Translations under genes and position numbers: made by a program
The notes under the pieces: model-generated
The model's database searches: none
Told to the model about the DNA's origin: nothing
The model's input: the letters and a program-made list of their open reading frames with translations, nothing else
Part shown: positions 31,690-42,324 of the stretch, piece after piece
Numbering within the stretch: the stretch's first letter is position 1
How the letters are laid out: every line of letters starts with the position of its first letter
Origin: a virus
Length of the DNA stretch: 64,000 nt
Direction: 5' to 3' (one strand)
IMG/VR virus record: IMGVR_UViG_3300049592_000018
Span: 1,149-65,148 of that record

Positions 31690-33309
31690 GTGGATCTGCC
31701 ACCGCGACGTCGGCGTCCAGTCGGGGGAGCGCTCACCGAGGCGCGCGCCCTCGTACCGCTACCACCGGAGCAGCGTGAGGCGCTGGTCGCCGCCGCGGGT
31801 ATGCTGCAGGGTTCCACGCGAGAGACGTTCGCGACGCAGTACCGTTCGTGGCAGGACGAGCTGTGGGAGTACTCACGCTCGGTCGGCGAGTACGGATCCG
31901 TGATGGACTGGTTTTCGGCGGGCATCAGTCGCATGCACCTGGTCGCCGCCGTTCAGCGAAGCGACGACCTACTACGTGAACCCGAGCCGATCACCGACGG
32001 TCCGGCCGCAGCGCTGGTGGCCGATCTGGTCAACAACGCGCGCAACGGCGAGACGCAGTACCTACTTAAGTGGGGTCGTCACCTCGCGATTCCCGGCGTC
32101 GGGTTCTTCATCGGCGAGGATCGCATCCGTGAGGGTGGTGTTCGAAGCTACGACGTTAAGTCGGCGAAGCAGGTGCGACGCGGCACACGCCCGTTGAGGG
32201 GACCCGACGGAAAAGTTTTACGAACGGAGTGGGGCGAGCCCGTCACCGGCTTCGAACTAATGGATGAACCCGACCGCTGGCGACCGCTCGGACCCAACAG
32301 CCTCGTCGGTCGCATCTACCGGCCGGACGACGAGTACGACTTTAACGTGTCCAGCTGGTCGCGACACGCCATCACGACGCTACGTGAGATCGACCTGTAC
32401 AACCGTCACATCGTCGCCGTGCTGCTGTCGCGACTGGTGTTCAACGGCATCCTCTTCATTCCCGAGGAGGTCACGTTTCCGGTCAACCCGCAGTTCAAGG
32501 ACGCGCCCGACCCGTTCATCGCGGAGCTGATCGCCATCGCGTCTCGCGGCATTAAGGACCCCGGTTCGCCGGCCAGCGCGCTGCCGCTGCCGCTGCGCGT
32601 TCCCGCGATGTTCGTCGAGAAGTTTCAGCATATGATCATTGCCACGGGCGTTGATGAGAAGACCGTCGAGGCCCGGGCCGCGTCCGTCGCGCGGCTCGCG
32701 CGGCAGCTTCCCGCGCCTCCGGAGGCCATGGAGGGTAAGAGCCAGCTCAATCACTGGAACGCCTGGGCCGACTCCGCGGACAACGTGCGCTTCTACTTCG
32801 GATCGACCATGGAGATCCTAACCGGCGGCCTAACGGATGTGTTCCTGTGGCCGATGCTGCGCGCCGCCAATGAAAGCATTCACACACCGGACGGCGGGGG
32901 TCGGTACGTCATCTGGTATGACCCATCCGACCTCGTTGCGGCGCCGGACAACTCCGAGAACGCTGAGCAGGCGCGCGGACGCAACAGCATCTCCGATGAC
33001 GCCTACCTCAAGGCGATCGGTCTCGATGACGCCGATCGACCCAGTGATGAAGAACTGCGTAGGCAGATCCTGACGAACCTGGCGACGCAGGGTCTACCGC
33101 TTCCCGACTCGTACTACAAGCTCTTTCCCGATGAGGAACCTCCGCCGCAGGCCGCGCAGGCCGCCGGGGCCCTCGCCGAGGCGCAGGCTGCCGCCCTACC
33201 GCAGCCCCCAGACCAGGCAGTCGACCGCTCACGGGGTAACGTTGGCCCGTCGCCTAGTGGGCGGTCGGCTGCCGGGACCGGTCGCCCACCGACCGGAGGT
33301 CGCCGATGA
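31690..33309 (+). CDS. Portal protein
   Basis: SWQDELWEY, NGILFIPEE, NHWNAW motifs typical of actinophage portals; position between TerL and MuF. Confidence 0.85.
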   Translation: MDLPPRRRRPVGGALTEARALVPLPPEQREALVAAAGMLQGSTRETFATQYRSWQDELWEYSRSVGEYGSVMDWFSAGISRMHLVAAVQRSDDLLREPEPITDGPAAALVADLVNNARNGETQYLLKWGRHLAIPGVGFFIGEDRIREGGVRSYDVKSAKQVRRGTRPLRGPDGKVLRTEWGEPVTGFELMDEPDRWRPLGPNSLVGRIYRPDDEYDFNVSSWSRHAITTLREIDLYNRHIVAVLLSRLVFNGILFIPEEVTFPVNPQFKDAPDPFIAELIAIASRGIKDPGSPASALPLPLRVPAMFVEKFQHMIIATGVDEKTVEARAASVARLARQLPAPPEAMEGKSQLNHWNAWADSADNVRFYFGSTMEILTGGLTDVFLWPMLRAANESIHTPDGGGRYVIWYDPSDLVAAPDNSENAEQARGRNSISDDAYLKAIGLDDADRPSDEELRRQILTNLATQGLPLPDSYYKLFPDEEPPPQAAQAAGALAEAQAAALPQPPDQAVDRSRGNVGPSPSGRSAAGTGRPPTGGRR

Positions 33310-40641: not shown

Positions 40642-42324
40642 GTGTCCAAGAATCTGAGCCTCCCTGAGGACATCACCGCCCTCAGCGTCGAGCAACTTAC
40701 CCAGTTTACGACCGATGCGCAGGCGCGTTTCGAGACGCTCTACGCGAGCGAAACCGAGGAACTAGCCGCCCAGGTCGCCGAGGCCAACGAGATGGCCGAG
40801 CTGGCGTCCGGTCTGGAGCGGGTCCGGGTTGAGACCACACGCCGTGCGGAGCTCGCCGCCAAGCAGCGTACCGAGGCGAAAAACAAGATGGCCGCGTTCA
40901 CCGATGAGGCCGCCGCACCGGTTGAGGACGCACCGACCGATTCCGAGCCTACGACGGAACCGGCCGAGGTCGTTGCGGCGTCCGCGGTCGGCGGCGCACG
41001 TACCGAGCCTCGTCCCATGGGTAAGTTCAAGAACCCGTCGCTCGCCGACGCGCAGCGCAACGCGCCGCCGACGAACGCACCTCGAAATGAGCCCGTTCTG
41101 ACGGCGTCCGCCGATATTCCCGGATTCGCCGCGGGTAGCAAGCTCGAAGACATGGAAATGCTCGTCGCCGCGATGCAGGCACGCGCCCGCCGGCTGCCGG
41201 TCACCGCACGAGGTGATGAGGCTCCTCGAATCCCGATCGCGTCGCTGATTCGTGATCACAAGTACCACCTCGGCTACGACTCGACGCTCGCCGAGTACAA
41301 CGAGGTTATGACCGCCGCGACCAATCCCGATATCCTGGTCGCCGCGGGTGGCTGGTGCGCTCCCTCCGAGATCTCCTACGACTTCTTCAACATCGCCACG
41401 AGCGACGGGCGCATCGACATGCCGACCATCGGTATCAACCGTGGCGGTATTCGCTGGCCGATCTCGCCGTCGTTCGCCGATGTTGTGCTCGGCGGCGCGC
41501 TCTGGTCGTGGACCGAGACGCAGGACATCGCGGCCGTCACCGGCACCGCACAGTCCGGCGTTAAAACATGTGGTCGCGTTCCGTGCCCCACATTCGATGA
41601 GGAACGTCTTCAGTGTGACGGCATCTGCCTGACGGTGGGTAACCTGACCGAGGACGCGTACCCCGAGCTCATCGCCAATCACACGCGACTCGTCATGGTC
41701 TCGCACGATCACAAAATGAACCGGCAGTACGTCAACGCCGTTCGCGCCCTATCCGCCGGCTTCACCGTGACCAACGGCAACGCGGGTGAGGGCGTCGTCG
41801 CCAACGTGCTCGGTGCCCTGGAGCTTCAGGCCACCGACTACCGCGACCGCTACGCAATGCCCGAGGACGCTCTGCTCGAGGTCATCGCACCGCGCTGGCT
41901 GCGTGGTCCGATGCGCTCCGACCTACGTCGCCGGACGGGCGCGCCGACTGACACGCTGTCTGCCAGCGACGCGATGCTCATGTCGTTGTTCGACGCGATT
42001 AACGTGCGCATCCAGTTCGTCAACGACTACCAGGTTCGCACCGCCGGCTTCCCGGGCGTTCCCGGCACGATCCCGACCGCCTGGCCGTCGACCGTCGAGT
42101 TCATGATGTACGCACCCGGCACCGTTGTGCTGGGTCAGGGTCTGCGCCTGGACCTCGGCATCATTCGTGACTCGGTGCTCAACGAGACCAACGACTTCAC
42201 GGCCGAGTGGATGGAGGAGTGCTGGCTCGTGTTCCAGCCCGGACACGAGGTTCGCCGCCTGACGGTCAACATCTGCCCCGACGGCACGACCGGCGCGCAC
42301 GACCTCACCGCTTGCGGCGTCTAA
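40642..42324 (+). CDS. Major capsid protein with N-terminal scaffold region
   Basis: Coiled-coil N-terminus, then LVAAGGWCAPSE, LDLGIIRDSVLNETNDF, typical of actinophage HK97-fold capsids. Confidence 0.9.
   Translation: MSKNLSLPEDITALSVEQLTQFTTDAQARFETLYASETEELAAQVAEANEMAELASGLERVRVETTRRAELAAKQRTEAKNKMAAFTDEAAAPVEDAPTDSEPTTEPAEVVAASAVGGARTEPRPMGKFKNPSLADAQRNAPPTNAPRNEPVLTASADIPGFAAGSKLEDMEMLVAAMQARARRLPVTARGDEAPRIPIASLIRDHKYHLGYDSTLAEYNEVMTAATNPDILVAAGGWCAPSEISYDFFNIATSDGRIDMPTIGINRGGIRWPISPSFADVVLGGALWSWTETQDIAAVTGTAQSGVKTCGRVPCPTFDEERLQCDGICLTVGNLTEDAYPELIANHTRLVMVSHDHKMNRQYVNAVRALSAGFTVTNGNAGEGVVANVLGALELQATDYRDRYAMPEDALLEVIAPRWLRGPMRSDLRRRTGAPTDTLSASDAMLMSLFDAINVRIQFVNDYQVRTAGFPGVPGTIPTAWPSTVEFMMYAPGTVVLGQGLRLDLGIIRDSVLNETNDFTAEWMEECWLVFQPGHEVRRLTVNICPDGTTGAHDLTACGV

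Follow-up and report, generated by a model that had tools for sequence, protein, structure and literature searches.

Why do the head proteins of one phage return repeatedly to the same four residues? The question is raised by a soil phage, the IMG/VR virus record IMGVR_UViG_3300049592_000018, of which a window of 64,000 nucleotides (positions 1,149 to 65,148 of the record) was analysed, amounting to almost the entire 65,148-bp phage genome. Its head genes form a compact module at 31690..42324, all on the + strand, and five of their products share the motif [LVI][VTI]A[AS]. Sequence comparison and structure models make it likely that this tetrapeptide, in the form [LVI]-[VT(I)]-A-[AS], is what the phage's own prohead protease recognises and cuts. 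The best explanation for the enzyme itself would be a serine protease of the herpesvirus-assemblin/HK97/T4-gp21 fold, predicted within a polyprotein of 737 residues. Nucleotide (nt) coordinates below are window positions, and residue (aa) numbers refer to the proteins of this phage unless another phage is named. The genes of the module are:

31690..33309, + strand: portal protein, 539 aa (phrog_776 portal, E 1.7e-76)
33306..37454, + strand: polyprotein of a MuF domain and two ADP-ribosyltransferase (ART) domains, 1382 aa (Pfam Phage_Mu_F 56.4 bits; ADPrib_exo_Tox 157.5 bits)
37454..38104, + strand: 2H phosphoesterase, 216 aa (Pfam 2_5_RNA_ligase2 39 bits, cutoff 27; phrog_2659, phrog_18402)
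38139..40352, + strand: protease polyprotein, 737 aa (matches phage 'head maturation protease' and MuF-protease fusion families)
40352..40525, + strand: small open reading frame (ORF) of 57 aa between the protease and capsid genes, from the ORF list
40642..42324, + strand: major capsid protein carrying a delta (scaffold-like) domain at its N-terminus, 560 aa (NCBIfam MCP_Sipho 484.6 bits; phrog_777)

The order portal, MuF-ART, 2H, protease, small ORF and capsid is the same in the cultured phages FuzzBuster, Cooper and TP1604, in which small ORFs occupy the same gap between protease and capsid genes. No family match was obtained for the 57-aa ORF.

A tetrapeptide enriched in the head proteins

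The motif matches 14 times across the five head proteins: at aa32, 84 and 415 of the portal, aa43, 70 and 268 of the MuF-ART protein, aa46 of the 2H protein, aa474, 492 and 683 of the protease polyprotein, and aa110, 153, 174 and 232 of the capsid protein. The original prediction, made from the letters of the DNA, had named seven such strings with coordinates, and all seven translate letter for letter at those places (LVAAAG at 31783, LLTAAS at 33429, IVTAAG at 34104, VVAAAD at 37589, VVTASA at 39555, LIAA at 39612 and VIAAS at 40185). The four strings it had given for the capsid are likewise all present in the capsid translation. Its idea of one shared pattern holds for the 14 formal matches and fails for one of its own examples, VMTAAT, which has Met at the first place; four matches (portal 84, portal 415, MuF 70 and capsid 174) were absent from its list.

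In the five head proteins (3,434 aa) the 14 matches compare with 2.4 expected from 500 composition-preserving shuffles, and a total of 14 was reached by none of the 500 summed shuffles. The genome's 74 remaining ORFs (15,686 aa) contain 8 matches versus 8.8 expected. The excess is therefore confined to the head proteins, in the comparison of head with non-head proteins that had been proposed as a check. It had also been granted that the idea would fall if the motif were equally frequent in all alanine-rich proteins; the near-chance count in the other ORFs of the same genome argues that alanine-richness is not the cause of the head excess. Composition as the source of the enrichment was rejected by the shuffles both in this genome and in the 33 related loci described below. 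As the pattern had been picked after looking at the sequence, 331,776 degenerate four-residue patterns were scanned, built from residue groups that included those of the prediction itself. At least 8 head hits were found for 2,080 patterns, among which [LVI][VTI]A[AS] ranked first behind 16 poly-Asp/Glu patterns (14 versus 8, Fisher 2.6e-6). The observation is thus confirmed and lies far beyond chance.

A capsid-based scan of viral contigs provided 33 related metagenomic loci, with capsid identities of 49-83% and mostly the same gene order. Their head ORFs contain 247 motifs in 73,900 aa (53 expected; 3.34 per 1000 residues) and their other ORFs 39 in 53,220 aa (45.9 expected; 0.73 per 1000), figures that show consistency and are not independent tests, homologous positions being counted repeatedly. 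Across these loci, Ala alone is enriched at the third motif position (4.9x). At the second position the enriched residues are Val (9.4x) and Thr (4.7x), together with Tyr (9.5x, from 16 instances), whereas Leu leads at the first (7.4x), and Ala (4.4x) and Ser (6.2x) are enriched at the fourth, aside from a Cys at the conserved capsid C-terminus. Could the repeats be a property of the DNA? A DNA repeat or recombination site was rejected, the motif having many synonymous encodings: LVAA occurs in 79 instances with 38 encodings in the related loci, and LTAA in 47 instances with 33. Since the encoding varies freely, selection acts on the peptide.

Position and conservation of the sites

Outside the protease polyprotein, the matches and the domains next to them are distributed as follows, with the number of relatives in which a site is kept:

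31783-31794, + strand: portal aa32, candidate N-terminal trimming site (3/7)
31939-31950, + strand: portal aa84, in a conserved stretch and ambiguous (7/8)
32932-32943, + strand: portal aa415 (0/11)
33432-33443, + strand: LTAA at MuF aa43, end of the leader (11/13)
33717-34079, + strand: MuF domain, aa138-258 (Pfam 56.4 bits, cutoff 29.6)
34107-34118, + strand: VTAA at aa268, after the MuF domain (7/13)
37589-37600, + strand: VVAA at 2H aa46, following a leader of aa1-45 and preceding the 2H domain
within 37454..38104, + strand: 2H domain, ~aa50-213, with H82-L-T and H172-V-T
40969-40980, + strand: VVAA at capsid aa110, in a disordered linker (6/19)
41098-41109, + strand: LTAS at capsid aa153, at the linker edge (18/19)
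41161-41172, + strand: LVAA at capsid aa174, in a predicted helix (17/19)
41335-41346, + strand: LVAA at capsid aa232, ahead of GGWCAPS (18/19)

The protease polyprotein is predicted to be organised, from N- to C-terminus, as:

aa1-43, + strand: small N-terminal domain, from the AlphaFold2 (AF2) model
aa59-126, + strand: conserved 'DVN..GGxHxLxxYW' domain
aa~134-316, + strand: helical insert that contains two FHGxHNQxDH tags as well as a poly-Asp run
aa313-472, nt 39075-39554, + strand: domain A, probably assemblin/gp21-like
aa474, nt 39558-39569, + strand: VTAS (4/19)
aa492, nt 39612-39623, + strand: LIAA (14/19)
aa498-668, nt 39630-40142, + strand: domain B
aa683, nt 40185-40196, + strand: VIAA (16/19)
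aa704-735, + strand: C-terminal helices

For the MuF protein, whose gene start overlaps the portal stop and which belongs to the MuF / SPP1 gp7 family (PF04233), the second motif had been predicted to lie directly past the MuF domain, and it does: the Pfam domain ends at aa258 and the motif is at aa268. In the protease polyprotein the motifs had been placed at apparent domain boundaries. The AF2 model agrees, with low-confidence segments at 44-68, 125-153, 253-316, 473-498 and 665-705 between confident domains, and all three motifs inside the last two; linkers with a predicted local distance difference test score (pLDDT) below 50 make up 219 of the 737 residues.

Several junction sites (MuF aa43 and aa268, 2H aa46, protease aa492 and aa683) are conserved while their flanks are not, whereas at control positions the motif occurs in 1.4-1.7% of relatives. 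For the 2H protein, the motif precedes the domain start in 11 of 18 relatives. Many relatives have the 2H domain joined to the protease at the latter's N-terminus, or prolonged by a C-terminal extension, and LTAA or ITAS follows the domain in five loci (L006, L008, L014, L027 and L032), within a few residues of the place where the 2H gene of this phage stops. By the same measure, two matches drop out: MuF aa70, kept in 0/13 relatives, is probably not a cut site, and portal aa415 is probably a chance match rather than a cut site.

In the capsid protein, which scores 484.6 bits against the curated NCBIfam MCP_Sipho model (cutoff 75), the AF2 model has confident long helices at aa16-90 followed by disorder at aa93-153. 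It was built from 20 sequences; the body fold is not confidently modelled and aa232 cannot be placed in it. The alignment of related capsids contains a V-[TV]-A-[AS] island at aa110, conserved within a linker that is otherwise variable and length-polymorphic, and at aa153 the sequence V-L-[TV]-A-S followed by A-D-I-P marks the onset of the conserved capsid body; more distant capsids align only from about aa133-153 on. These two positions are candidate maturation sites, and aa174 is probably not a cut site given its place in a modelled helix. A relaxed capsid form of the motif, V-x-A-[ASGTN], was judged by eye only.

Domain B allows the same relation to be followed over a far wider range of proteins. 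A profile of aa498-668 searched against 1.84 billion proteins returned 4,084 cluster representatives; 131 of the 149 best carry both sequence anchors and were used for a test of the flanks. Motif occurrence peaks sharply 11-20 aa before the domain (0.67 motifs per protein in a 10-aa bin, versus no more than 0.06 in any other) and again 14-23 aa after it (0.84 per protein, versus no more than 0.09 in any other). The upstream site is found in 91/130 proteins and the downstream site in 118/130, and the density inside the domain is 1.29 per 1000. For domain A, the motif stands on the C-terminal side.

Cultured phages carry comparable sites. In Microbacterium phage FuzzBuster, whose capsid is the nearest among cultured phages (32% identical), they are at aa275 and aa455 of the protease gp27, aa182 and aa315 of the capsid protein and aa45 of the portal. 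Mycobacteriophage Cooper has them at aa572 and aa760 of gp10 and aa21 of the portal, with the relaxed form V-A-A-S in its capsid linker. Streptomyces phage TP1604 gp11 unites MuF, 2H and protease in one protein, in which a relaxed LAAA directly precedes the 2H start and strict motifs stand on both sides of domain B; candidate sites of TP1604 are near aa42, 264, 686/702, 909 and 1103 of gp11 and near aa123/163 of gp13.

Several results weigh against reading the motif as a cleavage signal. Portal aa84, capsid aa174 and capsid aa232 lie in conserved or structured contexts, and portal aa415 and MuF aa70 are unconserved. The fixed distance between motif and domain B would also suit a structural edge strand of that domain, and domain A is not generally flanked on its N-terminal side. 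The capsid model is poor (mean pLDDT 52). In FuzzBuster the head proteins contain 8 motifs in 2,041 aa versus 7 in 3,592 aa elsewhere, only about a twofold difference. Finally, among 27 polyproteins with a recognisable 2H start, a strict motif lies at most 15 residues before it in 14 and a relaxed one in 18 (chance, about 0.055 per protein); it follows that the strict motif is missing in 13/27 and the relaxed form too in 9/27, so that release of 2H would be common, not universal.

Part of this evidence would suit a motif with no signalling role, inherited as a structural or compositional habit of alanine-rich head proteins at edge strands or helix starts: the well-conserved surroundings of portal aa84, capsid aa174 (in its predicted helix) and capsid aa232, the constant spacing from domain B, and the repeated counting of homologous positions in relatives. 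We hold this to be very improbable, as proteins of similar composition in the same genome show no excess, the flanks of the junction sites are unrelated and the linkers in which these sites stand are of low confidence and variable length, the density within domain B is low, and the capsid motif forms a conserved island in a variable linker.

Alternatively, the motif may be an uncut docking or targeting element, a strand that binds the protease groove, the scaffold or the portal, with the polyproteins intact in the virion. Enrichment, linker position and conservation fit a binding motif equally well; release cannot be obligatory where relatives lack the motif at a joint (as in the 13/27 before 2H); and MuF fusions have been discussed without any processing, the string 'cleav' occurring 0 times in the available text of Jamet et al. 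(2017, PMC5576092). This too appears improbable. The motif sits at places that are natural gene ends in homologues, it stands on either side of a protease-like domain as in self-releasing viral proteases, it lies between delta helices and capsid body, where HK97-type capsids are cut, and it matches the hydrophobic-x-Ala↓Ser/Thr sites (the arrow marks the cut) of proteases with the same fold. The core of the original proposal, that the motif marks prohead-protease cut sites in head polyproteins with enzyme cargo, is supported by enrichment, linker position, joint conservation, the peaks flanking domain B and the assemblin/gp21-like fold; several individual matches are instead probably structural or due to chance (portal aa415, MuF aa70, capsid aa174).

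The enzyme and its relatives

Which part of the polyprotein would cut? Domain A probably has the assemblin / HK97 / T4-gp21 fold. When aa313-480 of the AF2 model was compared with known structures, the best match was the varicella-zoster virus (VZV) protease (Z 8.6, 121 residues aligned, root-mean-square deviation 3.7), and T4 gp21 (5jbl) followed with Z 7.9 and 128/165 aligned. Other herpesvirus proteases scored Z 6.7-8.1 (pseudorabies virus 8.1, human cytomegalovirus 7.7, and those of herpes simplex virus, Kaposi's sarcoma-associated herpesvirus and Epstein-Barr virus), and the VZV, pseudorabies and T4 gp21 proteases are the sole non-helical matches topping the fold lists. Foldseek against the predicted viral structures of BFVD retrieved many 'prohead protease' models (E 1e-6 to 1e-4), some named 'HK97 family prohead protease', and with the whole protease model against PDB it gave weak E-values only, the best being a herpesvirus protease at 0.024. 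H363 and S414 of domain A, 51 residues apart, are invariant in 20/20 sequences and form a candidate catalytic pair; the catalytic triad of the herpesvirus proteases is Ser-His-His.

Two points tell against this assignment. The fold match has middling Z values, and sequence models hardly see the domain: Peptidase_S78 is touched by 1/20 domain-A sequences, at E 0.22 only, and Pfam gave no family for the 737-aa protein, including Peptidase_S78, S77 and S80. It is for these reasons that the fold is rated probable. Sequence and profile searches of PDB with the protease and capsid proteins gave nothing meaningful.

It is the second domain, B, that is bracketed by the motif, which would fit a self-releasing protease, and the polyprotein appears to hold two tandem protease-like domains (39075-39554 and 39630-40142). 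Domain B might then be the enzyme that cuts the sites, in place of domain A, or a host protease might do so. We consider this a tentative and rather unlikely alternative. Domain B has invariant residues suited to a protease (His541, His582, His597, Ser642), and ESM Atlas puts it near Peptidase_S77/S78/S80 clusters, which is a lead only. It has no match in the PDB fold lists or in Pfam, and it does not resemble domain A in sequence (hhalign probability 1.2%). There is no sign of a host protease, and the motif is confined to head proteins. Either choice would alter the enzyme and leave the cut-site reading intact.

Maturation may proceed as follows. Inside the assembled prohead the protease would excise itself at aa474/492 and aa683, the latter cut removing the C-terminal helical tail as at the herpesvirus M-site. 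The capsid delta domain would be removed in its disordered linker at aa110 and/or aa153. N-terminal leaders would be trimmed at MuF aa43, 2H aa46 and perhaps portal aa32, and a cut at aa268 would sever the MuF anchor from a double-ART passenger of about 1,110 residues. Once freed, the ART and 2H enzymes would remain in the head until they pass, together with the DNA, into the next host. The packaging and injection of ART and 2H are plausible from the fusion architectures. The scissile bond probably lies between the Ala and the following Ala or Ser, a placement made by analogy with the herpesvirus proteases.

That analogy has several sides. The general assemblin consensus is (V/L/I)-x-A↓S. In pseudorabies virus the assemblin sites YLQA-T and VQA-S are cut after Ala in a hydrophobic-x-Ala context (PMC4498786), and the phage motif fits this type at the level of sequence, with a hydrophobic P3, Ala at P1 and Ser or Ala at P1'. 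Herpesvirus pUL26, organised as protease, R-site, scaffold, M-site and capsid-binding tail, resembles the phage polyprotein in giving the best structural matches, in freeing a protease from a longer precursor, and in having a site that precedes a helical C-terminal tail by about 50 residues, with Ala at the conserved place. The assemblins release themselves by a cut at the R-site and cleave the scaffold close to its C-terminus at the M-site. The herpesvirus precursor differs in that there is no detectable sequence similarity with assemblin, the phage polyprotein includes additional domains (DVN, B and, in relatives, 2H), and the phage capsid carries its own delta domain in place of a separate scaffold protein. 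A bold reading would be that the hydrophobic-x-Ala↓Ser/Ala specificity was inherited from a common ancestor of phage and herpesvirus capsid proteases.

T4 gp21 offers a second model. This prohead serine protease shares the fold and uses a short motif to process the capsid, the core and enzymes packaged with them (gp23, scaffold, IPI-III and Alt). T4 cargo bears a short N-terminal targeting peptide, whereas the cargo here is fused to MuF or to the protease, or has a leader of about 45 aa. The cargo includes an ART in both; the match of this phage to the Alt-like phrog_802 is weak and partial (E 2.9e-7). The T4 protease cuts after Glu, at I/L-x-E (PMC12991175), whereas the conserved residue here is Ala, followed by Ala or Ser.

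The capsid protein gp5 of HK97 begins with a helical scaffold-like domain, which a linker joins to an HK97-type body, and the protease gene lies upstream, as in this phage. HK97 gp4 cuts after Lys. The protease here differs from gp4 in sitting within a multi-domain polyprotein with no Pfam Peptidase_S78 match. In SPN3US (gp245) and phiKZ (gp175), a single protease acts on many head proteins, among them the portal, the capsid and proteins that are ejected, at A-x-E↓, and removes its own C-terminal propeptide; the propeptides hold several motif copies (PMC10052503). Unlike the present phage, these are jumbo myoviruses of Gram-negative hosts, and MuF- or protease-fused enzyme cargo of this type is not described for them in the available text of that paper. 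What would be new here, well supported by the sequence comparisons and models, is a herpesvirus-like, Ala-based cleavage code for cargo-carrying head polyproteins in a very large group of actinophages.

If this is true, the code tells where the mature capsid, portal, MuF, protease and cargo proteins begin and end throughout that group, whose reach is indicated by the 4,084 cluster representatives of the domain-B family and by matches of the capsid family to 868 cultured phage records. It would also describe a phage protease with a specificity resembling that of herpesvirus proteases that are drug targets. According to a survey of actinobacteriophage capsids, it is not possible to predict where the delta domain is cleaved (bioRxiv 10.1101/2022.09.09.507160). 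No published measured cleavage site for this phage group or a relative was found in the literature; the available text of the Rosebush capsid paper (PMC7150772) has no 'cleav', and its supplementary mass-spectrometry tables may hold relevant peptides.

Cargo enzymes and genomic setting

What would the proposed cuts release? The cargo of the MuF-ART protein consists of two modules, each with a repeat of about 100 residues and an ART domain:

34221-34547, + strand: first repeat, aa~306-414, before ART1
35298-35810, + strand: ART1, ~aa665-835, R741/STS775/ENE818
35961-36263, + strand: second repeat, aa~886-986, before ART2
36951-37409, + strand: ART2, aa1216-1368, R1279/STS1313/EKE1350

Two stretches match the R-S-E ART family (PF03496, C3/VIP2-like; 157.5 bits, cutoff 23.4) and are 34% identical to each other over 219 aa. 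The Arg, Ser-Thr-Ser and Glu-x-Glu motifs are intact in both, and the closest relative of solved structure is Lmo0066 (E 1.6e-18), followed by Vip2 and C3. From the MuF domain to the C-terminus of the polyprotein the only strict motif is that at aa268; before the last ART module, several relatives carry the motif where this phage reads L-T-A-E. A single double-ART product of about 1,110 residues is therefore the default reading, not a certain one. The 100-residue repeat recurs, at times in several copies, in the cargo proteins of relatives.

The 2H protein belongs to the 2H family (PF13563 / LigT) by its Pfam score of 39 bits (cutoff 27) and by keeping both His-x-Thr motifs; TIGR02258 matches at E 4e-10 with a score under its cutoff. 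Against the Acb1 family (PF23474) it scores 17.9 bits (cutoff 27, E 0.0027), so that by sequence it is a 2H relative and not an established Acb1 member. Its association with the head is supported by comparison with other genomes: 2H homologues occur in head proteins of 388 phage records, and many relatives, as well as cultured phages, have the enzyme fused to the protease or to MuF. The leader of the 2H protein (37454-37588) has a conserved acidic helix, L-[ST]-[DE]-[DE]-E-[AV]-x-x-x-L, resembling the start of the capsid delta domain (40642-40740), which reads L-S-x-E-E-L-x-x-L/F in this phage and in relatives. The helix common to leader and delta domain may be a shared prohead-targeting element.

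Among the 47 longest domain-B proteins, Pfam detected MuF in 26, 2H in 17, ART in 2, a GNAT acetyltransferase in 1, NUDIX in 1 and inteins in 3, with no detected family in 12. This mixture suggests that the domain-B family is a general carrier of enzyme passengers. The GNAT, NUDIX hydrolase and intein cases are P0059, P0075, P0081, P0071 and P0098.

Injection of such enzymes has been proposed before. Jamet et al. (2017, PMC5576092) proposed it for MuF-toxin fusions, ARTs among them. Iyer et al. (2017, PMC5512222) predicted that a 2H domain joined to MuF or portal is injected, acts on nucleotides or RNA and breaks down defence nucleotides. The present polyproteins resemble these MuF polymorphic toxins and polyvalent proteins in joining a MuF head domain to C-terminal toxin-like enzymes. 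A cleavage motif for release is found in the available text of neither Jamet et al. (without 'cleav', PMC5576092) nor Iyer et al., who discuss autoproteolysis by a metallopeptidase domain (PMC5512222). If true, the proposed code would explain concretely how MuF-linked toxins and 2H enzymes, the injection of which earlier papers only proposed, are released.

Why is 2H the commonest enzymatic passenger (the 17/47 above), encoded beside the protease here and in the same polypeptide in many relatives? It is conceivable, if doubtful, that beyond being cargo the 2H phosphodiesterase is a built-in antidote tied to the prohead protease. Prohead proteases are described as triggering the cyclic-oligonucleotide-based antiphage signalling system (CBASS) by cutting an exposed loop of the CD-NTase (a nucleotidyltransferase of the cGAS/DncV-like type), T4 needing Acb1/Acb2 to mask this (2026 preprint, PMC12991175). 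A hydrolase of cyclic nucleotides or 2'-5' linkages, made in fixed proportion with the protease and simultaneously with it, would neutralise such protease-sensing immunity late in infection, and packaging would also supply the 2H enzyme early in the next one.

Turning to the genome as a whole, the remaining genes serve replication and nucleotide modification or encode a siphovirus tail and a WhiB-like regulator. Two features fit, and point to, an actinobacterial host:

58888-59268, - strand: WhiB-like regulator (E 1.8e-16)
30776-31216, + strand: SsgA-like ORF, weak (E 0.0013)

When the 10.6-kb region was compared by megablast with 50,697 phage records, no match appeared at the DNA level. No integrase turned up among the ORFs scanned, many small ORFs lying outside that scan. 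Jamet et al. (PMC5576092) found toxin-bearing MuF proteins only in temperate phages.

Other short sequences also recur in the head proteins. An HPR..GKF-type tag stands at aa281 of the MuF-ART protein (34146-34172), 13 residues past the MuF-end motif, and a His-rich FHGxHNQxDH tag occurs twice in the protease polyprotein (38547-38576 and 38916-38945); in the related loci, tags of the two kinds number 18 in head ORFs (74,213 aa) and 0 in other ORFs (94,742 aa). Poly-Asp runs lie at ~34092-34103 before the MuF-end motif, at ~34860-34890 in the cargo and at ~39015-39040 before domain A, and windows of four Asp number 13 in the head proteins versus 1 elsewhere in the genome. In TP1604 (L036), a gene at 593-3640 labelled 'tape measure protein' lies upstream of the portal and distant from the tail genes, which means that the tail module is divided by the genome ends or else that the label is doubtful. 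The left arm of the present genome (window 1-12709) carries genes for dCMP deaminase, a thymidylate-synthase-like protein and a kinase, and past the tail genes, at 54375-58795, are a sugar epimerase and three glycosyltransferases.

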